Shown here: piece by piece, positions 3,658 through 33,541 of the stretch
How positions within the stretch are numbered: the first letter of the stretch is position 1
Layout: each line of letters begins with the position of its first letter
Virus record (IMG/VR): IMGVR_UViG_3300047491_001507
Direction: 5' to 3' (one strand)
Origin: a virus
DNA length: 64,000 nt
The notes under the pieces: model-generated
What the model was told of the DNA's origin: nothing
The model's database searches: none
Seen by the model: only the letters and a program-made list of their open reading frames with translations
Position numbers and translations under genes: made by a program

Positions 3658-5106
3658 CTACACGATGAAATTTGCTATACTCATGCGTGCGTAAAATTTT
3701 GCCCCTTCACGTAACAACTTCTTTCCATATCTCGTAAGTATGCCTTTGCGGGGACAAAAACTCTCTGGATCTAACACAACTGGGGTCTGTGTTAGGGGTA
3801 CGTATGGGCAGTAGAAGTATCCACTATCCATATAGCTATCACCCTTATAACCCATGAGGATCTGTCCTTGTGGGAACAATGGGTCCTTATATAGTCTCCA
3901 TCTGTTGTTGATCGTTCCAACATATTGGATACCCAAAGAACTCGTGAATGTTTCCGAAGGAGCCGGTGCAAAACCAGCCGTAGCTGTCTCAAATACTGAG
4001 GCAACTTCGGGGGAAGTAACTAGCCAGTTACAACCACCACGGAGGGTTTTACGGTGAACGACGTTGCTAACTTCAACGACTTTCACATAGAGGCTTTCAT
4101 ACTTTTCCTTAATGGTATCACCGAGGGCTGTATTAAAGTCCCAAACGGCTACAGTACCAGCATTGTTGCGAAGATCGGTAAGAACTTCACGGTCGATTTC
4201 AAGGTTAATTTCTTGGGCGAGAACTGCTGTTAGTTCAGCTTCAGCGTCCAAGTTATGTTGGCTACGAAGATCTTGTTGAGCTTCATAGGACCAAACTGCC
4301 TTGAGTTTACGGGTTTTGGCGGCGATTTCTTCTGATTCAACGAGCAAGTTGACTTCAGGAAGATCCTGGTTGCATTCCATGTTATATTCATAGGACATAA
4401 CAACATGATTAGCACCTGGAGCCCCATTCCACGTTAGGGTTAGTTCACCGGTCACAGTATCAATAGATCCGCCAGTACACTTTGGTGCTGGGGTTCCAAT
4501 ATCACTGAAGGTGAAGGTTCCGGCTTCAGCAACTACGAAGGTTTGAACGGCGACTGAGCCATCGTAGATTGTACCAGTAAGAGTACCAGCAAGGACTGGT
4601 GTGTGCTCTAGTGGTGCGAAAACGGAGGTTACATCAGCACCGGCGTCAGTTGAGGAGGTCTCATTCTGAACGAACTGTGATGTGTAATAGATTTCTAGAT
4701 TTCCATCACCGCTAGCTAGCTGTTGCAATGAGGTGGCATCATCTGTGGGGTAGCCGCTGTTTAGGTCAGCACCACGCATAGCACCTTTATTGCTTGAGTA
4801 GCGGAATCGCAAGTAGTAGACCAAGCCGGTTGGGCCGAGCAACGGTTGAACGCTTACGATTTTGTTAGCGATAAGTTGTGGATAGATACGACGAACTAGA
4901 GGAATGCTAATTCTTTTGAATTGAGCAATATCTCCAGTATCGGTCATAGCTTCGTTCATAAGTCTCTGATTTTCCAACATGACAGCGGTAGTGGCTCGTT
5001 CATAACGATCCTTAATACCGTCGAGCAAAGATTTGCCATTGGAAAGAGGCTTAGACCATTTTGTTTCGATTTCTCGTGCTTCGTTTAGAAAGCGTGAATT
5101 TACCAT
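3658..5106 (-). CDS. major capsid protein, HK97-fold by position and size
   Basis: 482 aa. It follows the scaffold and protease genes, has a strong Shine-Dalgarno site (AAGAGGT) and a terminator downstream. Its GC content is higher than that of its neighbours. Confidence 0.7.
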   Translation of the reverse strand: MVNSRFLNEAREIETKWSKPLSNGKSLLDGIKDRYERATTAVMLENQRLMNEAMTDTGDIAQFKRISIPLVRRIYPQLIANKIVSVQPLLGPTGLVYYLRFRYSSNKGAMRGADLNSGYPTDDATSLQQLASGDGNLEIYYTSQFVQNETSSTDAGADVTSVFAPLEHTPVLAGTLTGTIYDGSVAVQTFVVAEAGTFTFSDIGTPAPKCTGGSIDTVTGELTLTWNGAPGANHVVMSYEYNMECNQDLPEVNLLVESEEIAAKTRKLKAVWSYEAQQDLRSQHNLDAEAELTAVLAQEINLEIDREVLTDLRNNAGTVAVWDFNTALGDTIKEKYESLYVKVVEVSNVVHRKTLRGGCNWLVTSPEVASVFETATAGFAPAPSETFTSSLGIQYVGTINNRWRLYKDPLFPQGQILMGYKGDSYMDSGYFYCPYVPLTQTPVVLDPESFCPRKGILTRYGKKLLREGAKFYARMSIANFIV

Positions 5107-8941: not shown

Positions 8942-9693
8942 TGTTAAAATTAGAAAGAGTTAAAAATATTATTTGTGTGATTTCTTTTCACACTTATGGT
9001 TGGATTGAACCATGTTTTGCTGATTTACAAAAATATTGTTACAATAAGCCGCTATTAATGATTGATAACAATCCTTCTTGGGATGATTCATATGAAAGAT
9101 GGTGTACTTATGAATGTCATCCCGCATCTTGCTGGAAACCTCAATGTGAAGACGAAAGAAACTTTATTGAAAGTCAACGAAGTTATATTGAAAGCACTGG
9201 AGGTGCTATTATTCAAACAGAACGTCGTCTTTATCACGGAAATGTCATTGATTGGGCTTTAGAATGGTGCAAAGCGAATAAGTTTCATACTATTACGTTA
9301 ATTGAGCCTGATTGTAATATGACAGGCGATCTTTGGCTGAAGAATTTAGAAGATGCAATACTTAGAGGCTATTGGATGGCTGGAACACATACTACTTTTC
9401 ATAATGCAATTCATCCTTTTGGATCGATTTGGAGAATTGATAAAATTTCAACTAGTTTTCATGCTCAACCGAATCGTGAAATTAGAAACCTTAAAGAATT
9501 TAATAAAGTTTGTGGTCCATACGAAGAACCTTATAATATTTGGAATCGTACCAATTGGGACACTGGACTTCGTGGATGGTATTTAATAGCAAGGCAAAAT
9601 AAGGCAAAATTAGTAAAAGCCCCAGATATCAAACATTACTGGGGCGGTTCATATCGTCAAAGAAAATACACAGAACGATTTGAGAATTTTTAA
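8941..9693 (+). CDS. hypothetical protein, possibly a GT-A-like nucleotide-sugar transferase
   Basis: 250 aa. Its start overlaps the previous stop (TAATG). ICVISFHTYG...LLMIDNNPSWDD and LIEPDCNMTGD loosely resemble the GT-A N-terminal and DxD-like motifs. Confidence 0.3.
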   Translation: MLKLERVKNIICVISFHTYGWIEPCFADLQKYCYNKPLLMIDNNPSWDDSYERWCTYECHPASCWKPQCEDERNFIESQRSYIESTGGAIIQTERRLYHGNVIDWALEWCKANKFHTITLIEPDCNMTGDLWLKNLEDAILRGYWMAGTHTTFHNAIHPFGSIWRIDKISTSFHAQPNREIRNLKEFNKVCGPYEEPYNIWNRTNWDTGLRGWYLIARQNKAKLVKAPDIKHYWGGSYRQRKYTERFENF

Positions 9694-12305
9694 TCTTCTT
9701 CTGATACATCAATCTCTTCTTCGTCCATTTCTTGAGCATAATCTTTAATTTCTAGATCATATTTTTTGACATCATCCTCATTAACATCAGGAATTGTAGA
9801 CATATCATTGCTGCCGTCCTCTTCCTCTTCATCGTCCATATATTTCCTCATGCCCATCGGAGGTGGCCCTCCTGGAGGTGCTCCACCCATTTCTGGTCCA
9901 CCTGGAGGTGCCCCGCCCATATCTGGCCCCATTGGAGGTCCTGCTGCCATAGGCCCGCCCATAGGTCCACCTGGAGGTGCTCCCATAGATCCGCCTAACA
10001 TAGGACTGGGTCCGGTCGGTTCTGTTCCGACTTCGGTTTCATCAGATCCTGGCAATCCTACGCCCAACAGGGTTGGATTCTGAGCAATGATTTGCAGTTT
10101 GAGATCTTCCAGTTTCTGAATCTTAAGTCTGGCCAGCATTTTCTCTGCTTCTTCTTCTGAGTACTTTAACAATTTGATCATAATGTCATAATCGCTCATT
10201 AATTGAGAGCTTTTCAGATTAGAAGCATTAGTTAAACGGTTGGTAACGACTTCGGCTCTGGTGAGTTCTCTCCAATCAGAAGGAGGCGTCATTTTAACTT
10301 GTAAATCTTCGTAAGATTCTTCTGGATAGCCCAATAATTTCAAATGTCGATCACAAATTTCCCATAATGCATCTTCAATATGAGATTGTAGTCGTTCAAT
10401 CATTCTGGCAAATTTGATGTCTTGTGCCGACAGAGCGATTCTGGTGCTTTGTGTGTCTTCATTGTTGAAATAGTTTCTGGGGAAATTTAAAGAAGTAAAT
10501 AGTTTATTGCGGAAATAAATTGTATCATCTACTTCGCCTAAATTACTAGCTCCAGGCAATGTTTCTACTTTCGTATTGGAATTTGGACGAATAGGAATCC
10601 AGTAATCCTCATCTACCGCAGGAGCGTGCCATCGTTCTTCTACAGATGAAGCACCTGGAATTTGACTGCGATTAGGCACTTTCTTTTTCTTGAATTGGTC
10701 CTTCATTCTTTCCATAAATGCTTCTGCTTTAAAGGGAGGCATTTGCTGAACGTCAATATAAAACACACGACGTTCTGGGCTTCTGGAAAGTCTATAGACC
10801 ACCATAGAATCTTCCATTAATCTTAATTGATGGGCTGGACCTCTAGCTGGTTCAATTAAACTTACGCCATACGGATAGAAAGTGCTACGATCATCTCCAA
10901 TACGAATATGTACAATTTGTTCTGGAGCGAATCGGATAGCAGTAGCTTGTTGTAAATCAGCATCTGTAGCTTGAGTGATTTCTACTCGTGCCAGACTTTG
11001 ATAATCTGGACCTTCTTTAGATTGCTGAAATTCGACTAATTTGCCTTTAGTAGTTTCAATACGATACATGCTATCTGGAGGAAGGGGCACCAAGCCAATA
11101 ACTCCATACTTGGGATTTTCTATGTCAATTATAATTTCCCAAAAGAAATCGCCATTGATAAAAGTACGTTTGGTAATATTCCATATTTTCTTTTGGTCAA
11201 AGTTGAGCATATTACGATGGAAAAACAAATATTCTAATTCTTTTTTAATGCCTTCATTTTTTAGATTAATGGTAAATACTCTTCCGTCATCATCACGTTG
11301 GCAATTATGAACTACGCCCCAATCAGTGCAGAAATTTTGGTGTTTTTCAACAGACAGATCAAAGACTTCTCTTTCTTTTCCTTCTAAGACAGCAATAACA
11401 TGTCGTCTGTCGCTTTTAGCACCAAGCCATTTCATTTCTTTGTTGGAAAAGCCTGCTCTTTCGATGCGATCTTGAATGGTATGCAGATCATTGCCTGTCA
11501 TCTTTTGAATTTGGCGAACAGATAAGCCTTCGGCAATCATTTGACAATAGTGATTGACGATTTTTAATTCTTCATTAGTTTTTCCAGTTCTCCATTCATC
11601 AATGAATTGTCGTTCATGAATCCAGCCTTTATCATGGGTCCAAATTCTAGGAAACTGGTTGGTTTTTAGTCCTGTAAGGTCTTGATTGGCAGGAAGGTGA
11701 TAAAAAGGCATTAATTCAGCACCATATTCTAAACTTCCTGCTTCAATCCAACTACCATCTCTGGTTAATACACGATGATCTGGAGTACAAATCAATTCCT
11801 GTCCATTATCAAATAAGACTCTTATTGTTTTGGCGATTTTAGTTAAACGAGGGTTATAGGCCCATGCAAGGGTATAATCTCTTTTATCAAAATCATAGGC
11901 ATATACTAGGAAACGTTCGGTAGGATCTGTGTATTTTTCTTTAAGATGGCGTATGGTTTTAAACCCATGTGGGGTAGCAACTTTAGTTCGTCCTGCAAGA
12001 CAAGCTTCGTCAGCAAATACGGTCATAGCCATTTCAATTTCTGGCATATTTCTTAATCGTTCATATTCTTTATAGCGATTAACACGATTGGTAACAGTAG
12101 ATAAATCAACAAAGTCATTAGTATCTCTTAGTCGTATGGCTCCTTTACCACCGCCCCAAGAACCATCTTGACCAGCACGAATATCAGGAATGGCATCTGT
12201 TTGTGATGTACCGGCACCGACTGGATCTTTTTTGTTTTGTTTGCTAAGAGGATCTTGGGCGAAAGCATATTGAAAAAGTTTGAAAAAATCGTACCAAGCT
12301 GCCAT
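9690..12305 (-). CDS. portal protein (putative) containing a mini-intein
   Basis: It lies directly downstream of the terminase on the same strand and is the size of a portal once the intein is removed. I use the start at MAAWYDFF, which is preceded by AAGGAGT. The C-terminus is Gly/Pro/Met-rich low complexity followed by an acidic tail. Confidence 0.5.
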   Translation of the reverse strand: MAAWYDFFKLFQYAFAQDPLSKQNKKDPVGAGTSQTDAIPDIRAGQDGSWGGGKGAIRLRDTNDFVDLSTVTNRVNRYKEYERLRNMPEIEMAMTVFADEACLAGRTKVATPHGFKTIRHLKEKYTDPTERFLVYAYDFDKRDYTLAWAYNPRLTKIAKTIRVLFDNGQELICTPDHRVLTRDGSWIEAGSLEYGAELMPFYHLPANQDLTGLKTNQFPRIWTHDKGWIHERQFIDEWRTGKTNEELKIVNHYCQMIAEGLSVRQIQKMTGNDLHTIQDRIERAGFSNKEMKWLGAKSDRRHVIAVLEGKEREVFDLSVEKHQNFCTDWGVVHNCQRDDDGRVFTINLKNEGIKKELEYLFFHRNMLNFDQKKIWNITKRTFINGDFFWEIIIDIENPKYGVIGLVPLPPDSMYRIETTKGKLVEFQQSKEGPDYQSLARVEITQATDADLQQATAIRFAPEQIVHIRIGDDRSTFYPYGVSLIEPARGPAHQLRLMEDSMVVYRLSRSPERRVFYIDVQQMPPFKAEAFMERMKDQFKKKKVPNRSQIPGASSVEERWHAPAVDEDYWIPIRPNSNTKVETLPGASNLGEVDDTIYFRNKLFTSLNFPRNYFNNEDTQSTRIALSAQDIKFARMIERLQSHIEDALWEICDRHLKLLGYPEESYEDLQVKMTPPSDWRELTRAEVVTNRLTNASNLKSSQLMSDYDIMIKLLKYSEEEAEKMLARLKIQKLEDLKLQIIAQNPTLLGVGLPGSDETEVGTEPTGPSPMLGGSMGAPPGGPMGGPMAAGPPMGPDMGGAPPGGPEMGGAPPGGPPPMGMRKYMDDEEEEDGSNDMSTIPDVNEDDVKKYDLEIKDYAQEMDEEEIDVSEED
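9840..10020. repeat. imperfect ~33-nt tandem repeats encoding the Gly/Pro/Met-rich portal C-terminus
   Basis: cctggaggtgctccacccat, cctggaggtgccccgcccat and cctggaggtgctcccatag are repeated units. Confidence 0.5.
11304..12002 (-). other. intein of about 233 aa inside the portal gene
   Basis: Block A is CLAGRTKV. Block B is TPDHRVLT, the TxxH motif. Block G is VVHN followed by the +1 Cys (CQRDDDG). The middle region is HTH-like (SVRQIQKMTGNDLHTIQDRIERAG). No LAGLIDADG or HNH motif is present. Confidence 0.6.
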
Positions 12306-12362
12306 ATTAACTCCTTGACGATACTGTATTATAGTATATTTATGAAAAACACAACAATAATC

Positions 12363-12701
12363 ATGACTCACCTTTGTTCAGGTCATGAGCAATTAATAAA
12401 TGAGTTAATGAAAAACCCTCATTTTGATCACTTTGAAACTAAAGGTCTTCATCATTATGATGACTTCCAGATACTATTTAATAATCCGCATCGCAAAAAT
12501 GATAAAAAAGCGGTTTGGGGAACGACTATTTTTCATAATCAAGACCTAACATGTTTTTCATTAATCAAACATTGTAATTTTATTTATTATAGTAAAAAGT
12601 ATGATCCTAGTATGTCCATCAGTGCTTTATCTTATCGATATAGAATTACGGGTATGAAGATTTGGCATAATAGAACAGGCGGTGAATGGTTAGTCGTTTA
12701 G
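12363..12701 (+). CDS. hypothetical protein filling the gap between portal and the upstream gene
   Basis: This is the only ORF that covers the 12306-12689 gap. The start at MTHLCSG has no clear Shine-Dalgarno site. Confidence 0.2.
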   Translation: MTHLCSGHEQLINELMKNPHFDHFETKGLHHYDDFQILFNNPHRKNDKKAVWGTTIFHNQDLTCFSLIKHCNFIYYSKKYDPSMSISALSYRYRITGMKIWHNRTGGEWLVV

Positions 12702-20524: not shown

Positions 20525-20881
20525 ATGAGGTATCGAGAAGAATCTTGGTCAGAATGGCTAGAAGAGGCATGGTTAGAAGAAGCAAAAGGCGATTTTATTC
20601 CAACAGTTCAATTTGAATTGAATGAAGACGATGACGACGATGAAGACGATTGGGATGACGATGACCAAGATGATTATGACGATGACGACTATGATGACGA
20701 CGACTATGATGAAGATGATTATGACGATGATGATTATGATGACGACTATGATTGGAGCAATGGCAGTTTTGATGATGAAGATGAAGATGAAGACGAAGAT
20801 GACGATTATGATTACGACGACGATGATTATGACGATGATGACGATTATGATTATGACGACGACGATGAAGACGACGAATGA
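20525..20881 (+). CDS. extremely acidic D/Y-repeat protein
   Basis: 118 aa. A WLEEAWLEEA N-terminus is followed by about 85 aa of DDDDY and DED repeats. The underlying DNA is tandem GATGACGACGACTAT-type repeats. Confidence 0.5.
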   Translation: MRYREESWSEWLEEAWLEEAKGDFIPTVQFELNEDDDDDEDDWDDDDQDDYDDDDYDDDDYDEDDYDDDDYDDDYDWSNGSFDDEDEDEDEDDDYDYDDDDYDDDDDYDYDDDDEDDE

Positions 20882-23933: not shown

Positions 23934-23952
23934 TCTTTTGAGGGCCAATATT

Positions 23953-25026
23953 ATGGGAATAGATTTTGACACATTCTACGATTGGTGTAAAGATCGATTT
24001 GGAGAGAGAAATCTAAAAATTAGACGTACTGCTCACGGCGATGAGATTTGCACTCACTCTCCCTTTGCTATTAAAAAACTAGGAAAAGAAGATCAAAAAT
24101 TTCATTTATGGCTTAATCCAAGTGGCGGGAAAAACAATTATGAATGTGGCGTTTATCGTTGTTGGCTCACTGACGAAATGGGATCTTTAATTTCATTTGT
24201 ATCAGAAATTGACAATATCTCTTACGATGAAGCAGAAGAACTAATTATTGGAATCAGTTCGTTAAGATCTTTGGAACGTAAAGTCCATGATCTTTTTGGT
24301 AATTATGAAGAACATATTCCGGTAAAACAAGAGCAAGTTGTAAAAACTGAAGAAGATAAACTTAAATTGCCAGAATCATGTTATCTAATTGAAACTATGT
24401 TTCCAAATGATTATTGGAAAATACGAGCAACAAAGTATTTGAAAGCAAGAAAAATTCCTTCAGTTGGATTGTATGTCTGCACAAACAACAAAGAATATGG
24501 CAATCGAATCATTATTCCTTGGTACGATAAGAATGGAGAGCTAATATTCTGGAATGGACGCAGTATGTCTCCAAAAGACAACATACTAAGATATGCTAAA
24601 CCCAAAAAAGCAGATCAAAGTTCTGCTTTGTATATGACAGCATGGCCAGAAAAGGGAGCAAAGATTTATATTATGGAAGGGGAATTTGATGCGATTTCTC
24701 TATCCTTGGCCAATTTAACAGGTTGTGCATGTGGTGGTAAATACCTTTCTGAAACCCAAATTGATTTACTAAGAGATTACACAATTGTATTGGCTTTTGA
24801 TGCTGATGAGGGTGGTCGGGAGGCAATGCTAAATATAGGTCGAGAATTACTAGAACAAGGTTTTAAAAATTTGTCTTATGTTCGTCCTCCAACAGTCTAC
24901 AAAGATTGGAACAAATTATTACAAGTCAGGAACATACAAACCTTAAATGCTTATGTGCATCGATTTGAAAAGCCTTTTACCACTATGACTGCTGATCTTT
25001 TGTTGTCTCGGAAGCTTTCAAATTAG
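23953..25026 (+). CDS. DNA primase (Zn-ribbon plus TOPRIM)
   Basis: The N-terminal zinc-binding segment is CTHSPF...ECGVYRC. The TOPRIM motifs are YIMEGEFDAISLSL (E) and IVLAFDADEGGREA (DxD). Confidence 0.65.
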   Translation: MGIDFDTFYDWCKDRFGERNLKIRRTAHGDEICTHSPFAIKKLGKEDQKFHLWLNPSGGKNNYECGVYRCWLTDEMGSLISFVSEIDNISYDEAEELIIGISSLRSLERKVHDLFGNYEEHIPVKQEQVVKTEEDKLKLPESCYLIETMFPNDYWKIRATKYLKARKIPSVGLYVCTNNKEYGNRIIIPWYDKNGELIFWNGRSMSPKDNILRYAKPKKADQSSALYMTAWPEKGAKIYIMEGEFDAISLSLANLTGCACGGKYLSETQIDLLRDYTIVLAFDADEGGREAMLNIGRELLEQGFKNLSYVRPPTVYKDWNKLLQVRNIQTLNAYVHRFEKPFTTMTADLLLSRKLSN

Positions 25027-25189
25027 GGTTTGCCAGATTTAGGAAATCTTCTTTAGTCACATAACGCAATGTTCCATCATGATGCCAAACTGGAATTGTG
25101 GCATTCTCGGTTGGTTGTCTTTTGAATATAGATGGAGTAAGAGACAAACCTCTCTTGATTTTACTGTTTTTACTACGAATTTCTGGCAT
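24983..25189 (-). CDS. small hypothetical protein
   Basis: The start MPEIRSK follows ACGGAG. The gene overlaps the 3' end of the primase gene on the opposite strand. Confidence 0.2.
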   Translation of the reverse strand: MPEIRSKNSKIKRGLSLTPSIFKRQPTENATIPVWHHDGTLRYVTKEDFLNLANPNLKASETTKDQQS

Positions 25190-25206
25190 GATTACTCCGT
25201 TAAAAT

Positions 25207-25608
25207 ATGAATTCAAAAACTATAAGTAAGATGCAGGATCGCTACATCGGTAAAATATGTAGTATTATTAGTTCGGCAATGAATAGAGATTTTGAAGAAA
25301 AAATTTGCAGAGAGCATTTCGTTGTCAGAGTTAAAGAAATTGATATGGATGGCGTTTGGGGAGTTCACCCATTTAATACAGATATGTTTAGTTTCTTTTC
25401 GATGAACCATATTATTTCAATTCATGAAGAATTTGAGATAAACGAAAATGATCCAGAACATTTAAAAATGATTCAAGAATTCGAAAAAGTTACTGGCAAA
25501 AAGATTGAACCAGACATTAAAACAAAAAAGGAACCATCTAGTGATTCCTTCTTTGTGGACATTGAAAGTCTGTCTAAATTAGCAGAGCAGGCCAAATCTA
25601 TAGTTTAA
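25207..25608 (+). CDS. hypothetical protein
   Basis: 133-aa ORF. Confidence 0.4.
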   Translation: MNSKTISKMQDRYIGKICSIISSAMNRDFEEKICREHFVVRVKEIDMDGVWGVHPFNTDMFSFFSMNHIISIHEEFEINENDPEHLKMIQEFEKVTGKKIEPDIKTKKEPSSDSFFVDIESLSKLAEQAKSIV

Positions 25609-27906
25609 TTACCAAGGACTTCCTGTATCTTCCTCTTCTTCATCGTTATCATCATCATTTGATGGTTCTACGTTCTTTGGAGGTGTTGCCTTAGGTTTGC
25701 CTTCTGATTTTGTATCTTTTGGCGGATTTACCTTAGGCTTCTCTTCTGATTTTGTATCTTTTGGCGGATTTACCTTAGGCTTCTCTTCGCTTTTTGGTGT
25801 TATGCTAGTTTTAGCCTTAGCTGGTGGCTCTGCCTTTGGTGGCTCTTCTGCCTTTGGTGGCTCTTCTGCCTTTGGCGGCTCTGCCTTAGCTGGTGGCTCT
25901 TCTGCCTTTGGCTCTGCTTTGGCCGGTGGTTCTTCTACCTTTGGCTCTGCTGCTTTGGCCGGTGGTTCTTCTACCTTTGGCTCTGCTGCTTTGGCCGGTG
26001 GTTCTTCTACCTTTGGCTCTGCTGCTTTGGCCGGTGGTTCTTCTGCCTTTGGCGGTTCTGCCTTAGCTTCTGGCGTTTCTAATTTCTTAGCTAATTGTTT
26101 AATGAATTTATTGGTTATCTTTTCAACGTCTTTTTCTTCGTAATGCTTCTTTAAAACTTCTCTCATTTCAGATTCAGTTGAGAATTGAGCAAATGTATTT
26201 AAGAGTTTTTCAAAATACATTTGGTTTATTTTAAAGCTATCAACTAATAAATCTAAACTGTTAGCACTTGAACCTTTTGAAAGTTCTTTGAATTTTTTAA
26301 GCACCTCTTTCTCATATTCTTCAATAGACATGCCTTCTGAAGAATTTTTGGTCTTAATGTCTTTGACTCTGGCTTTCATATCTTTAGGCTTAGTTTCTTT
26401 TTTGGCATCTTTTGATAAAGCATTATTGATTTCGGCATCTGATTCTGCCGATTCTGCCGATTCTGGTGTTTCTGGCACAAAATCTAAATCGGGAATTTCA
26501 ATATTTCCGAATCGTTTACCAATAGCCTCTAATAAATGATAAAGGTACTTTTTATTGATTGCCTCTGCATATTGCATGTCTAACTCAACATTAATAGCAT
26601 GAATAATTTCTAATACATATTCTGCTTTAGAAATGGCAGGAGACAAAAATCTTATGACCTTATTTTTCAATTTGCCCTTATAAAACAAAATTTGAAAATG
26701 TTCTTTAATTTTGCCGTTTTCGTCATGCAATATATTTAACTTCAAAAACAACTTGAGTATTCTCTTGCAAATAGCATTGATCTGTCTGAAAGAAAAGTTT
26801 TTGCTATTTGGAACAATATCTTCTGGCTTAATCACTGGATATCGACTTACCTTGGCATCATATTCAGGAACCTTAAATCCAAGAACCTTGATTCCTTTTA
26901 ATATGTCTTCGGCTCTATTTTGGAAAGTCCTGTTGTCTGGCAAAGTCGATACCTTTCGGCCTTGAGTGTTACTCATGGCATTGTCGTCGCTTACCTCTTG
27001 TTCGTCTCCAACTATTTTCATATTCTGAGCCAAAGGTGCTGAATCAGATTTAGGACCAACTTCTGTTTGTGCAATTTTAGATTTAATCAAATCAATTAAT
27101 TGCTTCTTAAAGACAGCAAAAATATCACTGATATTAGAAGTGTTCTCTGAAAATACATTTTCAAGAATTTCAGCTTGTTCTCTAGTCGGATCGCCATGCC
27201 ATATACGACGAATGGGTCTGGTGGCTCTACGAAACATGCGACTCAAACCGCCTCTGATGCCGTCAGAAGGTAATTTATCTCCATATTTTGCTGGCTGGAA
27301 ATCTCCTGCTTTTGGTCTAGATTGACCTTTAAAATCTGACCATCTAGGATATCGTTTTGAAGGCCCTTCAGTTGGCTTGACTGCTGGTTTTGCTGTTGGT
27401 GCAACTGTTGGCTCTGCTGCCGGTTCTGTTGCAGGTTCTGAGGAAACATCTGCGGCTCCCTGGCTTGTGCTGCCAGATGGCAATTTGCTTCCACGGATAG
27501 GTTGAGGCCCTGGAACACTTGCGGACTTATCGCTACTTATGTCACTGCTTACAGGCGTATCACTTCTAGATAAACTGATGATTTGTTTGACATCTGATTC
27601 TAATTTATCAATTAGATCTGAGATATCTTTTAAATCCACGCCTGCCGTAGCTTCTTTAATTAGCTCATCTTTGTATTCCTGAATAAAATTGTTTATCCAA
27701 TATTTGTTAAATTCATAATCTTGTTTTCGAAAATTTAAGTAATGTGCTTCAGAAACAATACCATCAAACATTGATTCTGGTAATTTAACAACTTCTAAAA
27801 CAGTTAATCTTAATACTTCACAATACTGTTCTATGCTTTCTTTTAGCGAAAGTTTTGGAATGGAATCGACAATTTGATTTCTTCTGTATTCTGAAAAACT
27901 ATACAT
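25609..27906 (-). CDS. large hypothetical protein with C-terminal PAKAAEPKVEEP-type tandem repeats
   Basis: 765 aa. The C-terminus has about nine proline/alanine/lysine/glutamate repeats and then KSEEKPKVNPPKDT repeats. The nucleotide tandem repeats are at 25697-26090. Confidence 0.5.
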   Translation of the reverse strand: MYSFSEYRRNQIVDSIPKLSLKESIEQYCEVLRLTVLEVVKLPESMFDGIVSEAHYLNFRKQDYEFNKYWINNFIQEYKDELIKEATAGVDLKDISDLIDKLESDVKQIISLSRSDTPVSSDISSDKSASVPGPQPIRGSKLPSGSTSQGAADVSSEPATEPAAEPTVAPTAKPAVKPTEGPSKRYPRWSDFKGQSRPKAGDFQPAKYGDKLPSDGIRGGLSRMFRRATRPIRRIWHGDPTREQAEILENVFSENTSNISDIFAVFKKQLIDLIKSKIAQTEVGPKSDSAPLAQNMKIVGDEQEVSDDNAMSNTQGRKVSTLPDNRTFQNRAEDILKGIKVLGFKVPEYDAKVSRYPVIKPEDIVPNSKNFSFRQINAICKRILKLFLKLNILHDENGKIKEHFQILFYKGKLKNKVIRFLSPAISKAEYVLEIIHAINVELDMQYAEAINKKYLYHLLEAIGKRFGNIEIPDLDFVPETPESAESAESDAEINNALSKDAKKETKPKDMKARVKDIKTKNSSEGMSIEEYEKEVLKKFKELSKGSSANSLDLLVDSFKINQMYFEKLLNTFAQFSTESEMREVLKKHYEEKDVEKITNKFIKQLAKKLETPEAKAEPPKAEEPPAKAAEPKVEEPPAKAAEPKVEEPPAKAAEPKVEEPPAKAEPKAEEPPAKAEPPKAEEPPKAEEPPKAEPPAKAKTSITPKSEEKPKVNPPKDTKSEEKPKVNPPKDTKSEGKPKATPPKNVEPSNDDDNDEEEEDTGSPW
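25697..26090. repeat. in-frame tandem nucleotide repeats of about 36 and 42 nt inside the 765-aa gene
   Basis: tgctgctttggccggtggttcttctacctttggctc occurs three times. ccttctgattttgtatcttttggcggatttaccttaggctt occurs twice. ggtggctcttctgcctttgg units recur. Confidence 0.7.
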
Positions 27907-27953
27907 ATTTCCTCTTGGTGATTTAAAATATATAGTCCAAGATTATTTCATTT

Positions 27954-28481
27954 CTAAGGCATATATTCACCAATTTTCTTTAATGCCATTAAATTAGAAT
28001 CGTAGGTTTGAAAAGGGCTTGGTAAATATTGGTAGCAAATACGGTCAAACTCTGCTCCTTTGCCTTCTGGATATTCAAAATGAACATATTTTCCTTTTTT
28101 ACCAATAACTTTTACTCCAAGAGCTTTATCTGAATATTCTTTCATTAAAAGATAGGCGGCAACACCTAAGTCGGCAACAGTTTTGCAACGCCTCTCATCA
28201 GTAATTCCTGGATCAAATTCGTTGATTTTTTTCAAAAACATCAAACAAGAATCGAAGGTGTAAAACTCGTTTGGTGGTTGGTATTCCAGCACCAAACGAT
28301 CAAATTCTTTAGCTTCTTGCTCGTCTGAACATTCAAAATAAATCGATCTGCCTCTTTTGCCAATTACAATATAACCATGCATTAGAACATAGGCAGCTAC
28401 CCCTAAATCATTTACGAACTTATGAATACATTCTGTCATTTCTTCCCCTTTCTTGTTACTTAGTTGCATTCTCTGCGGCAA
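27954..28481 (-). CDS. protein with two tandem ~80-aa repeats of an uncharacterised domain
   Basis: NDLGVAAYVLMHGY...FECSDEQEAKEFDRLVLEYQPPNEFYTFDSCLMFLKKINEF matches ADLGVAAYLLMKEY...FEYPEGKGAEFDRICYQYLPSPFQTYDSNLMALKKIGEY. Confidence 0.45.
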   Translation of the reverse strand: MPQRMQLSNKKGEEMTECIHKFVNDLGVAAYVLMHGYIVIGKRGRSIYFECSDEQEAKEFDRLVLEYQPPNEFYTFDSCLMFLKKINEFDPGITDERRCKTVADLGVAAYLLMKEYSDKALGVKVIGKKGKYVHFEYPEGKGAEFDRICYQYLPSPFQTYDSNLMALKKIGEYMP

Positions 28482-29496
28482 TTAAACATCCACGGCTTAC
28501 ACAATACAAAGGATCATCTGGCCTGATAATTTCTCCGAAATTAACTGGAATTTGTGCATTAAGTAACAGATTCTTAAATAATGCATCAAAACCAGGAGGA
28601 CTTGCACTTCCACCGGCCACAATAACATCAATTGGATTGTCTAATCTTCTTATCTTTTCCTCATTTTCCATCAAACCTTTTTTAATTCCAGCTACTGTTC
28701 TCTCAATCATCAATTCATATTGAGTACGAATTGCTCTTTCTACTAATGTTGTTGGTGGTTTGGTCAAATTAATTTTGTGTTTTTCTTTGTTAATAAAGGC
28801 AATACTTTCTCCAGTAGCCTTGGCAGCTTGTTTATCAATCCAATCTCCTGAGTTTACAAGAGAAAAACTGAATACTTCTACGCCATACAAAGCAAATGCT
28901 ACATTGACCATGCCACTACCGCAACTTACGCCAAGACCTGTCCAATATTTGTTGGCGAGTTCAGAATACACAACTGCCATTCCTTCATTAATTGGACGAG
29001 CATCGACTGTGTAGCCTTGTTCGGACTTATAAGCTTTAAAAATAGCATCGAGTATTTTACGGTGATAATCTGCATCCGTTTCTTGATTAACTGCATTAGC
29101 AGGCACACTGTAATACATAATTTCCTTATCATGATCAATATTGTCCAATAAGCTGTGCATCATAATGTTCATGATCTGAAATGCGTCTTTTTCCTTGGGA
29201 TTGACACAGCCATCTTGCATAGGTCTACGAAGCGAAATCTGACTCATGGTGTAAGCAATGTTTACAGCAGCTTCGCCTAATGCATAAGCGATTTTGGCAT
29301 CTTCTCGTAAAATAAGAGGAACGCCAGATTTTTTCATCATATTGAAAACAAATTCGTTCTCCAGAGGCATTTCTAAGAATGCATTGACTTCTCTTTTATA
29401 AACTAAATCGCCTTTTTCGTTTCGTTTGCAAGTAACGATATTATAAGTACCTGCGTCAAATCCACAACTCATAAAATCCTCCAAATTATTTGCCAA
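28456..29496 (-). CDS. actin-like ATPase (ParM/MreB/Alp-like)
   Basis: Phosphate-1 is GFDAGTYNIV. Phosphate-2 is LGVSCGSGMVNVAF. The adenosine motif is VIVAGGSASPPGFD. The 346-aa size is typical of bacterial actins. Confidence 0.55.
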   Translation of the reverse strand: MANNLEDFMSCGFDAGTYNIVTCKRNEKGDLVYKREVNAFLEMPLENEFVFNMMKKSGVPLILREDAKIAYALGEAAVNIAYTMSQISLRRPMQDGCVNPKEKDAFQIMNIMMHSLLDNIDHDKEIMYYSVPANAVNQETDADYHRKILDAIFKAYKSEQGYTVDARPINEGMAVVYSELANKYWTGLGVSCGSGMVNVAFALYGVEVFSFSLVNSGDWIDKQAAKATGESIAFINKEKHKINLTKPPTTLVERAIRTQYELMIERTVAGIKKGLMENEEKIRRLDNPIDVIVAGGSASPPGFDALFKNLLLNAQIPVNFGEIIRPDDPLYCVSRGCLIAAENATK

Positions 29497-29707
29497 AATT
29501 CAACTTCATACCTGATGTAAAATCAGGTATGACATGATCTGTTCTTTCTATATGTTTTTCTTCTTTTAATGTAGTAACATCTGCTTCATTTGAAGATGCA
29601 TTTATCTGTCCGTCAACGGTTATATTAATGTTTAAAGTTATTTCTAATTCCCCATCTCTAGGTACAATTTTGATTTTTGTTGGACCTTTTTGAATAAGTT
29701 GCGGCAT
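29486..29707 (-). CDS. small hypothetical protein
   Basis: 73 aa. It overlaps the start of the actin-like gene by 11 nt. Confidence 0.3.
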   Translation of the reverse strand: MPQLIQKGPTKIKIVPRDGELEITLNINITVDGQINASSNEADVTTLKEEKHIERTDHVIPDFTSGMKLNFGK

Positions 29708-29708
29708 A

Positions 29709-30668
29709 TCACCACCTTTTAAACATCTCTTCTGTTTTTTCTAATATCATCTCCACTGTAATATTTGTTACACAAGGCTTAGGAGTATTTAGCGTCTTGA
29801 CGCATTTTCCCCATTCATAACATGGGCCACATTCCCAGTTTGTGTCAAGATTTCTGTGTTTTTGTACTAAAAAGAAATCAAAATATTTTCCATAAGTAAT
29901 TCCGTCTACAAAAGTAAATATGCCCACCAATGGTTTTTTCATGCCTCCAGCAGCATGAAATGTAGCAGTGTCTACACTAATCACATAATCGCTTTCATGA
30001 ATTACTGCTAACCACTGTCGCAAATTAATGTCGAAAATTGTTGGTATGTCATTTGCCAACATACATGGAATTACAGTATTATGTAGTCCGATTACACAAT
30101 ATCCCTTTTGACGCAAATTATAAACTAACCCCATGATCTGCTCTTCAGTCAAATTTTTATTTAACATTGCGGATATGGGCGACAAAATAACAATTTTTCC
30201 TGGACGATCTCTTTTTTTTTCTAATATGTACTTCCCTTCTATTTTCTCAACTTCTGAAAGATGAATGTGCATATTGTGTTCAGTTAATGTCAACCCGCAA
30301 TGTTCTGCCCAAATATCACTGCGATGCTTGTCGCAAAATGGAGCATATTTCATTTCATAACGACCGCAAATGGTAGAAGTGTTGTATGACATTAAATACT
30401 TTCTGCGATCAATCTCTTCTATGGTTAAAATCTTATCGACAAAAGGATGATCTTCAACAGCCGAATGGTAATATTTGGGACATGCAAAATGAATTTCAAT
30501 TTCAGGACATAATTTCTTAAAATCCTCAAATAACATCCTGTGCATTAAAATATCCCCCAAACCCCCCACATTACGTATAATTAAAAGTTTATTCTTAATC
30601 TCTTGGAATTCTTTGATATTTAATTGTTTTTTCTTAGGATGGCGATTTGGTTGAGTGATTATGGGCAT
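29709..30668 (-). CDS. GT9-like (heptosyltransferase-family) glycosyltransferase
   Basis: LLIIRNVGGLGDILMHRMLFEDFKKLCPEIEIHFACPKYY matches the GT9 N-terminal signature (iliIRlsalGDvl...p.a.idwlv). Confidence 0.5.
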   Translation of the reverse strand: MPIITQPNRHPKKKQLNIKEFQEIKNKLLIIRNVGGLGDILMHRMLFEDFKKLCPEIEIHFACPKYYHSAVEDHPFVDKILTIEEIDRRKYLMSYNTSTICGRYEMKYAPFCDKHRSDIWAEHCGLTLTEHNMHIHLSEVEKIEGKYILEKKRDRPGKIVILSPISAMLNKNLTEEQIMGLVYNLRQKGYCVIGLHNTVIPCMLANDIPTIFDINLRQWLAVIHESDYVISVDTATFHAAGGMKKPLVGIFTFVDGITYGKYFDFFLVQKHRNLDTNWECGPCYEWGKCVKTLNTPKPCVTNITVEMILEKTEEMFKRW

Positions 30669-30689
30669 TCAATAATAAAGTAATTAAAT

Positions 30690-30720
30690 AAAAAAAGGGC
30701 CACCGAAGTGACCCTTTTTT
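30690..30720 (-). terminator. strong rho-independent terminator with a UUCG tetraloop, probably bidirectional
   Basis: The minus-strand RNA folds as GGGUCAC-UUCG-GUGGCCC followed by UUUUUUU. A-tracts and T-tracts sit on both flanks. Confidence 0.65.
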
Positions 30721-30753
30721 CCAGACTAATCTGGTATCGATCTAACCATGTTA

Positions 30754-31344
30754 TCAGCTAGTTGGGACTGAGCGAATGGCTGCAATCCAACTTGCGTCTG
30801 AAGCTGCGGTTGACTTTAGTCGCAAATAAGTAATTGCTAAGTCGCCCTGATTGAAAATCTGAGTCTCGCCAGCTTTCAATGTAAATGTAACATCCGTATC
30901 TGCATTCAATTCACCCGAAACCGTTTGAGTAGCATCCAAGTTCTGGACCTGTAAGAATCGAGCGGGACCACCGTAGGTCGTTACGAAATCAACTACTGTG
31001 TCAGCGTAATCTGTCGTCAATGTCTCAGTTGCACCAGCAGCGAAAGTATTCTCTTCTGGAATATCACTGTATACACTGCCATCATCCGTAACTACTTCGA
31101 TGAAAGCTGCTTCTTGTGCTACCTGTGGATATGCAAATCGTTTCCAATAGTTGCAGTCCGTAAATGTAGCACCATCAACCAAAAGACGATAACTGCGATT
31201 CGGGCCAGCTACGAAAATCTGACGCTGCTTTGATGCAGTGAAAGGCGTGCCCAATGCACCATACGTGGTTGATGTGTCTGTGGTCGGATCAAGATCCAAT
31301 AGACCCTGCTTTACATTCTGTAATTTTACTCTAAATACTGACAT
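30754..31344 (-). CDS. Ser/Thr-rich structural-like protein that is probably highly expressed
   Basis: 196 aa. Its GC content is distinctly higher than the flanking DNA. It has a strong Shine-Dalgarno site (AGGAG) and a strong terminator immediately downstream. The sequence is T/S-rich (DPTTDTSTTYGALGTPFTASK, ATETLTTDYADTVVDFVTTYGG). Confidence 0.4.
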   Translation of the reverse strand: MSVFRVKLQNVKQGLLDLDPTTDTSTTYGALGTPFTASKQRQIFVAGPNRSYRLLVDGATFTDCNYWKRFAYPQVAQEAAFIEVVTDDGSVYSDIPEENTFAAGATETLTTDYADTVVDFVTTYGGPARFLQVQNLDATQTVSGELNADTDVTFTLKAGETQIFNQGDLAITYLRLKSTAASDASWIAAIRSVPTS

Positions 31345-31385
31345 GGAATTCTCCTGTTTTCTCTAATTTTTTCGTCCGTCAAAAT

Positions 31386-31982
31386 TTATATATCCCATAC
31401 CTCTCCTTTTAAAAATAATTTTTTATACAATCGTGTACCAATTCCTGTAGGCACTAAAAATGTCATTGTTTCATTAATAGCAGCATTAAATAAATCAGGA
31501 CTTTCTACTCCAGCTACACATCCTGCGAATTCCACGTTTCCATTAATTTCTACAGAGAATCCTTTGTCTAATAATTTCTGCCGTAATTTTTCAATTTGTA
31601 AAGAAGTCAAGCTTTTAGTTGGATGGTTGCCTTGAGTAATAATAACAGCCCTATTGGTCAATAAAGATTTTGTTGAATCGATAAAATTAAACCTGATTTT
31701 AGAATCTTCAATTAAATGCTCAATAGGATGGCGAATTCCGTCATAAGATAAAGTGTAAACGTAAGAATAAAGGCGTTTGTTAAGTTGAGACAGTCCAACA
31801 GCATTCTTGCCCGCTAAATGAACTTTATCGTCCTTACAAGCAATAGTTAATTTAATTGGAAAGTATTGTTTTTCAATTGCTGATGTTAAAAACTTAAGCA
31901 AAACAAGATATTCATCAGAATATCCTGAGTAAAGAATGCAATAATTATTGATAATTTTTGAATATTGTTCGAATGGTAGCAT
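31386..31982 (-). CDS. GT9-like protein, short form
   Basis: AVIITQGNHPTKSLTSLQIEKLRQKLLDKGFSV resembles the GT9 central region (ihpgas...KrWp.e.f.eLa..L...g..vvl). No clear Shine-Dalgarno site precedes the start. Confidence 0.3.
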   Translation of the reverse strand: MLPFEQYSKIINNYCILYSGYSDEYLVLLKFLTSAIEKQYFPIKLTIACKDDKVHLAGKNAVGLSQLNKRLYSYVYTLSYDGIRHPIEHLIEDSKIRFNFIDSTKSLLTNRAVIITQGNHPTKSLTSLQIEKLRQKLLDKGFSVEINGNVEFAGCVAGVESPDLFNAAINETMTFLVPTGIGTRLYKKLFLKGEVWDI

Positions 31983-32111
31983 ATATTATAATAATGGACG
32001 ATACAGAAAAAATCCAATCTGGTTTACATGCATTTCACGATTTTTTTCAACAATTTGGGGATGATGTCTATGCCAGAATACTTATTGAAGTAATTATGGA
32101 AGGAATAATCA

Positions 32112-32474
32112 ATGCTGAGACTCTATTTATATTTGGCGAGCAGGAAGAAGAAGGGAATCAAATTGATCACAGTGCTACAGGGAACCCAATCTGTTAATAG
32201 CGAATTGACAGATTTGGAAAGTCTAAATCTTAACGCTACATGGTCAAACAAAATTGCTAAAATCATTAACGAACATAAACTGCTCTATTTCCCTATGATT
32301 GAATCGGCAAAAGACTATCAAGAGTTAAAATCTAGATTAGAAAGTCGTGGTTATGATAATATCCCTTCCGGCGTTGTGCCTTTGTTGCATATGCAAGCAT
32401 ATGCAAAAGCTCCTATAGCTGATGTAAGTTCATGTAAAGTTGTGAAAACTATGATTAGAAGAGGAAAACAATGA
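32112..32474 (+). CDS. hypothetical protein
   Basis: An AAGGAA Shine-Dalgarno site precedes the ATG at 32112. Its stop overlaps the start of the next gene (ATGA). Confidence 0.4.
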   Translation: MLRLYLYLASRKKKGIKLITVLQGTQSVNSELTDLESLNLNATWSNKIAKIINEHKLLYFPMIESAKDYQELKSRLESRGYDNIPSGVVPLLHMQAYAKAPIADVSSCKVVKTMIRRGKQ

Positions 32475-33340
32475 ATGAATGCTTAGATCGTTTAAACAAC
32501 GAAAAAATGGAATTTTATAAGTTTGCATACCGAAATAGCAAACGATGGACTCCAGATCAAGGATCTTTAAATGGGAAAACAGTAATTGTCTATGGAGAGC
32601 AAGGATTTGGAGATATCATACAATTTTCTCGATATATTCCAATTCTTCAGTCTAAAGGCTGTAAAATATTGTTTGCCTGTCCCAAAGAATTGCATAGATT
32701 GTTTGCTTGTTTGAACGTGGAGCTTATTGATAAGGAAACTTTAGAATTACCACCCCATGACTTCCATATTTTATCCTTCAGTTTGCCTTTTGCCCTTCAA
32801 CAACTTCATGATGGAATAAAATTTCCGTATCTTGTTGTGCCAGAAAAACATGAAATTGATAAGATTGACAATGTTAAAAATATAGGAATTTGTTGGGAAA
32901 GCGGAGCAGACAATCAAAAAAATTGTCCTTTAAATTATTTTAGAATGCTAGCATGTCCTTATATTCGTTTTTATTCTCTTCAAAAACAAATTCTAATCCC
33001 TCAATTATTAAACGACTGTGATGATTTTGAATTGTTCGGGACTGAACTAGAAGATTTCTACGATACTGCCAAGTTAATTAATGCTATGGACATGGTTATT
33101 AGTGTAGATACGGCAGTATTGCATCTTGCAGGAGCTTTAAATAAGCTTACTTATGGAATTTTGAACTTTGAGCATGATCCTCGCTGGGATGTTGGAAATT
33201 GGTATCATAGTGCCGTTATAATAAGACTAAAACAAAGAGATAATTGGTATGCAGCATTTAAGACAATTATCGATATGTGCATCGGAATTAGATCTGCTAT
33301 CAATCCTGATGATGACTTAATGAACTTAATGTCTTCCTAG
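32471..33340 (+). CDS. GT9-like glycosyltransferase
   Basis: KTVIVYGEQGFGDIIQFSRYIPILQSKGCKILFACPKE matches the GT9 N-terminal signature. An AGAGGAAAA Shine-Dalgarno site precedes the start. Confidence 0.45.
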   Translation: MNECLDRLNNEKMEFYKFAYRNSKRWTPDQGSLNGKTVIVYGEQGFGDIIQFSRYIPILQSKGCKILFACPKELHRLFACLNVELIDKETLELPPHDFHILSFSLPFALQQLHDGIKFPYLVVPEKHEIDKIDNVKNIGICWESGADNQKNCPLNYFRMLACPYIRFYSLQKQILIPQLLNDCDDFELFGTELEDFYDTAKLINAMDMVISVDTAVLHLAGALNKLTYGILNFEHDPRWDVGNWYHSAVIIRLKQRDNWYAAFKTIIDMCIGIRSAINPDDDLMNLMSS

Positions 33341-33541
33341 CTCAATAAAAGCCATTGATTTAACCATTGCTGCAAAACGAGGCAGAGACCATGCTTTGGT
33401 AGGCAACAAATTCAAAGACTCAATGGCTGTAATTAAATTCTCTATTGGCATTTCTATGATGTTTTCTAGCTTTAGATTGTTTTTGTCACATAATGCATCT
33501 AATGCTTTGATAGCTTCGTATTGTTGCAATTTGTACATCAT
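33326..33541 (-). CDS. small hypothetical protein
   Basis: 71-aa ORF. Confidence 0.3.
   Translation of the reverse strand: MMYKLQQYEAIKALDALCDKNNLKLENIIEMPIENLITAIESLNLLPTKAWSLPRFAAMVKSMAFIELGRH

Follow-up and report, generated by a model that had tools for sequence, protein, structure and literature searches.

A Volactin-family actin homologue encoded with two conserved small partner proteins in T4-like huge phages: a candidate filament module

A stretch of viral DNA of 64,000 nucleotides (IMG/VR record IMGVR_UViG_3300047491_001507; hereafter, the window) encodes at positions 27954–29707 an actin homologue of the Volactin family, flanked by the genes of two small proteins, p73 and p161. The actin adds a new viral branch to a known family, and the trio that it forms with two orphan partner families would be a new form of the known phage- and plasmid-encoded actin-like systems. 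The reading favored here, to which we assign a probability of roughly 55%, is that the trio represents a phage-specific, cytomotive Volactin-family actin filament with two dedicated accessory proteins that organizes the infected cell. The initial annotation of the locus had described an actin-like ATPase, most like MreB or ParM, in an operon resembling the ParM–ParR systems of plasmid segregation. The observation was real, with gene lengths and gene overlap corrected below; of the interpretation, an actin-fold ATPase in a conserved module with small partners was retained, the family assignment was revised, and the ParR analogy found no support.

The three open reading frames (ORFs) run in the same direction on the minus strand and fill 27954–29707 exactly. 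Lengths of 346 and 175 amino acids were originally given for the actin and the repeat protein because upstream TTG codons had been taken as starts. The actin gene starts at the ATG at 29472, preceded 6 nucleotides upstream by a GGAGG Shine-Dalgarno sequence, and encodes 338 amino acids; the repeat-protein gene starts at the ATG at 28439, preceded by GGGGA, and encodes 161 amino acids. In agreement with these starts, the Pfam Volactin alignment begins at residue 9 of the 346-residue ORF, the best 120 actin homologues are 325–358 amino acids long (nearly all 336–341), and p161 homologues are mostly of 158–169 amino acids. On a public contig encoding an identical actin protein, the gene calls are 73, 338, and 161 amino acids. 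With the ATG starts, therefore, the three genes do not overlap. The spacers are 13 nucleotides between p73 and actin and 16 nucleotides between actin and p161, each with its own ribosome-binding site. The translational coupling first proposed found no support in its overlap form; the genes are tightly packed and probably co-transcribed. The features of the trio are as follows.

28456–29472, minus strand: actin-like ATPase of the Volactin family, 338 amino acids (Pfam, AlphaFold2, Foldseek, Shine-Dalgarno sequence)
29434–29463, minus strand: phosphate-1 motif GFDAGTYNIV, residues 4–13 of the 338-residue protein (read from the sequence)
28897–28932, minus strand: phosphate-2 motif GVSCGSGMVNVA, residues 181–192 (sequence and family alignment)
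28585–28626, minus strand: adenosine-binding motif VIVAGGSASPPGFD, residues 283–296 (sequence and family alignment)
29486–29707, minus strand: p73, a small partner protein of 73 amino acids (homologues directly upstream of the actin gene)
27954–28439, minus strand: p161, a tandem two-domain protein (175-residue ORF trimmed to its ATG)
28200–28439, minus strand: repeat 1 of p161, residues 1–80 (comparison of the halves; isoelectric point 4.8)
27957–28199, minus strand: repeat 2 of p161, residues 81–161 (comparison of the halves; isoelectric point 8.5)

The middle protein matched the Pfam family Volactin (PF25216) with an E-value of 4.2e-66 and 224.1 bits against a gathering cut-off of 35, and residues 9–341 of the 346-residue ORF aligned to profile positions 1–321 of 321. 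The three actin-fold signatures noted initially are present in order, and with the full profile covered at this E-value they lie far beyond chance. By sequence, the protein classifies as a full-length Volactin family member and a predicted ATP-binding actin homologue. The family is Volactin and neither MreB nor ParM. The family models of MreB fell short of their thresholds: Pfam MreB (PF06723) gave 22.8 bits against 27, over residues 64–141 only, and NCBIfam MreB (PRK13927) gave 19.4 bits against 293. NCBIfam MamK (NF040964) likewise gave 22.8 bits against 400, and no ParM family match was found in Pfam at E-values up to 0.1. A PDB search with the single actin sequence gave no match. A profile built from 57 diverse family members (29–77% identity), whose alignment also served as input to AlphaFold2, matched MamK (5.5e-16), BeeR (8r2n, 1e-10), MreB (7e-9), and FtsA (2e-6) in the PDB, and PilM also appeared among these matches.

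The AlphaFold2 model of the actin was of high confidence (predicted local distance difference test [pLDDT] 95.3, predicted template-modeling score 0.93) and contains subdomains IB and IIB, typical of actins, also with high confidence. The closest PDB structures in a Foldseek search with this model were MamK, MreB, and BeeR, with template-modeling (TM) scores of 0.66–0.70 and E-values of 2e-15 to 9e-14. This best set included the MamK filament 5ljv, the BeeR filament 8r2n, and F-actin, with eukaryotic actins next (TM 0.6–0.7). All of the top 29 structures are actin-type filament proteins; EutJ ranked 30th and ParM (1mwm) 31st (TM 0.52–0.55). Sequence identity to the MamK, MreB, and BeeR structures was only 15–20%. 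The initial annotation had raised a sugar kinase or an Hsp70-like chaperone as the alternative identity, and neither Hsp70 nor a sugar kinase (hexokinase, ROK) appeared among the top 50 Foldseek or the 60 profile-versus-PDB matches shown. Judged by the model, then, the actin fold is nearest to those of filament formers, and by analogy with them the 338-residue protein would be expected to polymerize.

The nucleotide-binding motifs are well conserved across the 57 family members. D6, G8, and T9 of phosphate-1 are invariant or nearly so, as is E163. G185 of phosphate-2 is invariant, with S183, G187, and N190 nearly invariant, and in the adenosine motif G287 is invariant, with G288, G294, and F295 nearly so. 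In both the sequence and the model, the protein begins directly at strand 1 and has no N-terminal amphipathic helix.

The actin module is phage-encoded and lies in a T4-like huge phage. The window carries genes for a gp23-type major capsid protein, a gp20-type portal, an S77 prohead protease, a T4-type large terminase, baseplate wedge and hub proteins, and a DnaG-type primase, so the original proposal of a phage-encoded actin-fold ATPase stands, with the fold placing it in the filament-forming branch. An identical actin is found on a 306-kb contig, and proteins 67–78% identical are found on contigs of 458–693 kb. Among GenBank phage records, only LR756511 (595 kb, 57.5% identity) and LR745208 (485 kb, 33%), both metagenomic huge phages, encode relatives; a close megablast search against phage records returned nothing. 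Relatives of the actin are encoded by 360 IMG/VR contigs, and an exhaustive search of cluster representatives gave 854 families at 50% (E ≤ 1e-3). In the literature on actin homologues of huge, jumbo, or mega phages, of which coverage was incomplete, this family was not described.

Cellular genomes and metagenome-assembled genomes (MAGs) encode homologues of 31–38% identity, mainly in Planctomycetota (some on multi-megabase contigs) and Omnitrophota, and also in Patescibacteria, Nitrospirota, one Halobacteriales archaeon (about 34% identity over residues 1–334), and further groups. Two features of these cellular proteins were seen in passing, with loci designated here and below by L numbers. 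In the Omnitrophota and Halobacteriales loci (L100, L103, L107, L110, L116, L129, L133, L146, L149, L154, L160, and L162), the Volactin genes occur as tandem paralogue pairs. The Planctomycetota Volactins (e.g., L105, L108, and L127) are long, about 700–900 amino acids, with a large extension N-terminal to the actin domain.

The trio is conserved and tightly linked across divergent phage lineages. In about 80 viral loci, the gene order is p196, (GT9), p73, actin, (an insert of 0–2.4 kb), the two-domain protein, and a p765-like gene, where p196, p765, and the GT9-like glycosyltransferase are neighbors described below. In 78 loci a p73 homologue immediately precedes the actin gene; the median gap there is 14 nucleotides, and in 63 of the 78 it is 60 nucleotides or less. 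On the downstream side, a median of 46 nucleotides separates the actin from the point where the alignment of the domain protein begins. The 73-residue ORF had been recorded initially as an upstream coupled ORF; its presence there was borne out, and it proved to be a partner conserved to the same degree as the repeat protein.

The argument for a functional linkage rests mainly on a few distant loci. In L165, with an actin of 43% identity, GT9 is followed by a 73-residue p73 homologue (BLASTP E-value 6e-5), actin, and a 73-residue single-domain homologue of p161 (hhalign 99%, E-value 2e-18), with gaps of 4 and 10 nucleotides. In L087, the actin is 53% identical and the actin and two-domain genes are 15 nucleotides apart, without p73, GT9, p196, or p765. 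Three further loci (L167–L169) were reached from single-domain proteins, and in each the domain gene lies 1–1.1 kb downstream of a Volactin gene, which has a gene of 69–76 amino acids directly upstream. All three lookups from the domain protein landed next to a Volactin gene.

The partners are absent from the cellular homologues. In a sample of 80 MAG and genome loci (L084–L163), partners were found in only five (L084–L088), with actins 53–68% identical and the phage gene order. The actin and domain genes are present in each of the five, and p196 and p73 in each except L087. These are probably mis-binned huge-phage contigs, because of both the high actin identity and the shared gene order; they are labeled as Chloracidobacterium, Acidimicrobiaceae, Bacteriovoracaceae (546 kb), Nitrosotalea, and Neisseriaceae MAGs. 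Neither partner was found in the other 75 loci (L089–L163), which are mainly from Planctomycetota and Omnitrophota, with some Patescibacteria, a Halobacteriales archaeon, and others. The distant phage LR745208 also lacks both partners. A sensitive hidden Markov model search for p73 in the cellular loci gave nothing significant; a small upstream ORF in L089 (E-value 1.9) resembles it by eye only.

The partner p73 is mildly acidic (isoelectric point 5.6) and matched no Pfam, PHROG, or NCBIfam family. Among 64 unique sequences, a beta-rich N-terminal segment (..DGE..LNINL..G) is conserved, followed by a variable, charged linker with insertions and deletions and by a conserved extreme C-terminus, IPDF....K..FGK-stop. 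In L164, a small ORF (4728–4982 of that locus) directly upstream of a phage actin of 44% identity has a hydrophobic, transmembrane-like N-terminal helix and, at its C-terminus, KPAKFGIDD, which is similar to the p73 tail; judged by these features, it may be a membrane-anchored p73 variant.

The partner p161 is a tandem duplication, as was first noted from its two repeats of about 80 amino acids: its halves are 49% identical (E-value 2e-19), and both are strongly conserved. It is acidic overall (isoelectric point 5.7), and its AlphaFold2 model (pLDDT 83) shows two beta-alpha-beta-beta-alpha-alpha units. No match was found in Pfam, PHROGs, NCBIfam, or PADLOC. With a single-domain profile, 508 proteins were found, many of them of 73–95 amino acids, and sister lineages hold this single-domain form; among the proteins listed, none carries a relevant Pfam domain. 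Two candidate relationships were rejected. Against a viral structure library, p161 gave weak LAGLIDADG endonuclease matches (E-values above 0.08, TM about 0.2), which are noise. A likeness of the ~75-residue domain to Pfam DUF5659 was not supported, as single repeats gave no Pfam match at E-values up to 10 and the DUF5659 domain is absent from the best 120 profile hits of the single domain.

In the mechanism proposed for the favored reading, the 338-residue protein would polymerize into dynamic cytoplasmic filaments during infection. p73 would dock on the filament or the monomer through its conserved C-terminal peptide, and the two-domain p161, in effect a ready-made dimer, would link, nucleate, bundle, or load filaments; the single-domain form of the sister lineages would need to dimerize. 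The job of the module would be to organize the cell interior during infection, in a phage whose genome measures 300–690 kb, through positioning of the replicating DNA, the procapsids, or the assembly site, a role corresponding to that of the tubulin PhuZ in nucleus-forming jumbo phages. Which partner binds where, and what the cargo is, are suppositions of this scheme. A more definite form of the proposal, advanced only tentatively, is that the module is the self-contained actin cytoskeleton of T4-like huge phages, with two new classes of actin-binding protein, and positions procapsids or replicating DNA; p73 would then be a peptide-docking adaptor or regulator, and the alpha/beta domain, in its single or its duplicated form, would nucleate or cross-link filaments or load cargo onto them.

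Several observations weigh against a dedicated filament system. First, the phosphate-2 motif has Ser and Asn where MreB and actin carry acidic residues. Second, 25 of 84 loci have 0.8–2.4 kb of unrelated genes between the actin and domain genes. Third, the whole region is collinear in the close clade (the distance to the capsid gene is about 24 kb in the window as well as in LR756511, and the capsids are 77% identical), so that most of the ~80 loci are not independent evidence of linkage. Finally, the folds of the partners yielded no functional clue, and neither matches a solved fold.

To our knowledge, the phage-built cytoskeletons known in detail so far are the tubulins PhuZ and TubZ and one prophage actin, AlpC. 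With the module, an actin-type system found widely among environmental huge phages would join them, and the two uncharacterized partner families could be new filament regulators. It also offers a cloneable handle on how infection is organized in very large phages that do not form a nucleus, and it links Volactin, an archaeal and planctomycete actin family, to viruses.

The genes around the trio help to define its transcription and its possible roles. The relevant features are as follows.

29709–30668, minus strand: gene for a GT9-like (heptosyltransferase-family) glycosyltransferase (Pfam Glyco_transf_9, E-value 6.6e-5)
25609–27906, minus strand: p765, a long low-complexity protein with Pro/Glu/Lys/Ala-rich repeats (ORF, repeats, position)
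30690–30721, minus strand: terminator-like hairpin between p196 and the GT9 gene (14-bp stem and T-run)
25522–25556, minus strand: terminator-like hairpin after p765 (15-bp stem and T-run)

The GT9-like gene stops 1 nucleotide before the p73 ATG, and the hairpin at 30690–30721 is only about 22 nucleotides from the GT9 ATG. From this layout, the GT9-like gene, p73, actin, p161, and p765 probably form one transcription unit, bracketed by the two terminator-like hairpins, with the GT9-like gene probably first and p765 last; the upstream hairpin would be either the boundary or an attenuator of the unit. A sigma-70 promoter scan found sites no more numerous than in shuffled sequence, and the T4 late promoter motif TATAAATA was not enriched (three found versus seven expected).

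The GT9-like gene also matched NCBIfam heptosyltransferase I and II weakly, below cut-off. It is upstream of the trio in most of the related loci and in L165 and L169, and it is absent in several others. The window contains two GT9 genes, at 29709–30668 (minus) and 32471–33340 (plus), and such genes recur beside the actin in L164, L165, and L169, even in lineages whose actins are only 43–44% identical. The L164 neighborhood also holds GT1, GT2, sulfotransferase, and methyltransferase genes. On the far side of the GT9-like gene, p196 (30754–31344, minus strand) is Thr/Ser-rich, matches no family, and precedes the module in about 79 loci; one possibility is an abundant structural protein on which the neighboring GT9 glycosyltransferases may act. 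At the other end, homologues of p765 follow the domain gene in many loci, a gene of 444–605 amino acids takes that place in L167–L169, and none is present in L087; its membership in the module is uncertain. p765 has no match in Pfam, PHROG, or NCBIfam and has Pro/Glu/Lys/Ala-rich tandem repeats (AEPKVEEPPAKA-like) and an acidic tail. This composition may be like that of the acidic, repetitive MamJ, which tethers cargo to MamK filaments.

Selfish elements occur in and beside the actin gene of some relatives. Several relatives of about 700 amino acids are the same actin split by an intein with Hint and LAGLIDADG domains, whose insertion point is exactly the S183/C184 junction of the phosphate-2 motif (P0241 and P0246; L088, 4968–7136). 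The intein starts with Cys1 and ends in His-Asn, with Cys+1 following; the window allele lacks the intein yet keeps the Cys+1 residue. In L010, a free-standing homing endonuclease gene of the GIY-YIG/NUMOD3 type (3674–4435) lies between p73 and actin, and eleven more loci have a similar insert of about 0.6–0.8 kb there. Homing elements in T4-like phages typically reside in or beside conserved, important genes, and as far as we know an ATP-binding motif is an unusual location for an intein. The intein in the phosphate-2 motif suggests that the actin gene matters to the phage. Inserts of another kind, between the actin and domain genes of L010 and L011, encode Terminase_6N-like ATPase proteins (341 and 607 amino acids), with a methyltransferase also in L011. 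In the window itself, the portal gene gp20 (9690–12371, minus strand, 893 amino acids) has an intein splicing domain (180–356) ahead of its Portal_T4 domain (360–745).

Other content of the window was recorded in passing. ARAGORN found no tRNA genes in the 64 kb, and despite this the window encodes a CCA-adding (PolyA_pol-type) tRNA nucleotidyltransferase. Peptidase domains of the M28, M14, and M20 families are present, as is a long Asp-rich coding repeat at 20622–20877. A PADLOC search for defense systems was empty, and the window ORFs scanned showed neither chimallin nor PhuZ.

Three other functions were weighed. The best of them, which we consider unlikely, is a DNA mover of the ParMRC or AlpACS type, in which the filament would move phage DNA, either the replicating genome or a plasmid-like or pseudolysogenic episome, and one of the small proteins would be a DNA-binding adaptor for a centromere-like site in another part of the genome. 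An actin gene with small conserved partners on both sides does recall parM–parR and alpC–alpA, and prophage CGP3 offers a precedent in AlpC, its adaptor AlpA, and the alpS sites (PMC4446434, PMC5539076). The module adjoins the primase gene in the window and in L087, L167, and L168, and DNA binding is conceivable for a small domain that is tandem or dimeric and has a conserved basic hairpin (V-I-G-K-K-G-K). However, the actin is not ParM-like (rank 31, TM 0.52, no ParM family match), and both partners are acidic overall (isoelectric points of 5.6 and 5.7). No ribbon-helix-helix, helix-turn-helix, or other DNA-binding fold was seen in the partners, and neither p73 nor p161 matched a DNA-binding family. 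For p161, with no family or viral-structure hit and no DNA-binding fold recognized, the analogy with ParR drawn initially is thus not supported. The search for parC-like repeats had the same outcome: no non-coding array was found in 25000–33500 or elsewhere in the 64-kb window, where the search covered these 64 kb and the genome is 306 kb or longer. The sole arrays near the operon, at 25689–26065, are coding repeats of the next gene, p765, which leaves intact the first observation that the flanks hold no centromere-like array. The intergenic spacers are too short for a centromere, and among the window ORFs scanned none was recognized as a lysogeny or partition gene.

Less likely still is a remodeler of host shape or envelope, in which an MreB- or volactin-like filament working with GT9-type glycosyltransferases would change cell shape or size or direct the synthesis of envelope or glycans; the outcome might be a cell with more room for very large virions, or altered surface receptors. 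Volactin itself acts in cell shape (PMC10869688), GT9-like genes stand beside the actin in the window (two copies) and in the distant L164, L165, and L169, and the small upstream protein of L164 has a transmembrane-like N-terminal helix. Yet GT9 is missing from L087 and from loci that keep the trio (e.g., L019, L025, and L031), the MreB family models remained below their cut-offs, and the actin has no N-terminal amphipathic helix. No MreC, MreD, RodZ-like, or elongasome families were found in the flanking ORFs scanned (23938–33340). Co-assembly with host MreB is also unlikely, because identity to MreB is only 15–20%.

A non-polymerizing enzyme or chaperone of the acetate and sugar kinase/Hsp70/actin (ASKHA) superfamily (sugar kinase, Hsp70-like, or EutJ-like) serving the adjacent glycosyltransferases is highly improbable: the actin fold is common to kinases and chaperones, glycosyltransferase genes do adjoin, and EutJ (rank 30 in the fold search) and FtsA and PilM (in the profile search) did appear, but the top 29 structural and the top profile matches are all actin-type filament proteins, the 50 fold and 60 profile matches shown contain no hexokinase, ROK, or Hsp70, and the Volactin match is full length with subdomains IB and IIB modeled confidently.

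Compared to known filament systems, the module proposed here as a phage actin filament with two accessory proteins shows several points of likeness and difference. First, Volactin of Haloferax volcanii (VolA, HVO_2015) forms dynamic cytoplasmic filaments in vivo and has a role in cell shape (PMC10869688). It belongs to the same sequence family, PF25216, over the full length; in contrast to the viral protein described here, it acts in the cell shape of an archaeon, is encoded on the chromosome, and has no p73-like or domain partners described for it. The present gene is viral, and the partners are absent from cellular loci. The function of VolA cannot be transferred to it. Second, MamK, MreB, and BeeR are the closest solved structures, and all three form filaments. 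They differ in sharing only 15–20% identity, and the MamK and MreB models are far below their cut-offs; unlike the settings of MamK and MreB, phage structural and replication genes surround the actin here, with no magnetosome genes and no MreCD or RodZ neighbors.

Third, the closest functional precedent, by literature analogy only, is prophage CGP3 of Corynebacterium glutamicum, in which AlpC, AlpA, and alpS serve viral DNA transport and replication (PMC4446434, PMC5539076). Both systems have a phage-encoded actin-like protein with a small partner gene. CGP3, however, is a temperate prophage with a defined DNA-binding adaptor and alpS sites, whereas the present module belongs to a T4-like huge phage and has two orphan-fold partners, with no DNA sites found in the window. 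ParMRC shares the layout of an actin-fold motor and a small adaptor gene in one operon. The C-terminal peptide of ParR docks on ParM, to which the conserved C-terminal peptide of p73 is a possible analogy. ParM is distant (TM 0.52, rank 31), no ribbon-helix-helix adaptor or parC array was found here, and the gene order differs, with one partner upstream and another downstream of the actin.

Finally, the phage tubulins PhuZ and TubZ form filaments that organize the infected cell in jumbo phages (PMC7950403). The likeness is that of a phage-encoded cytomotive filament, as proposed here; the differences are the tubulin fold and the other phage lineage, the nucleus-forming Chimalliviridae. If the proposal is true, phages without a phage nucleus would have in this module an actin-based equivalent of the PhuZ tubulin spindle.

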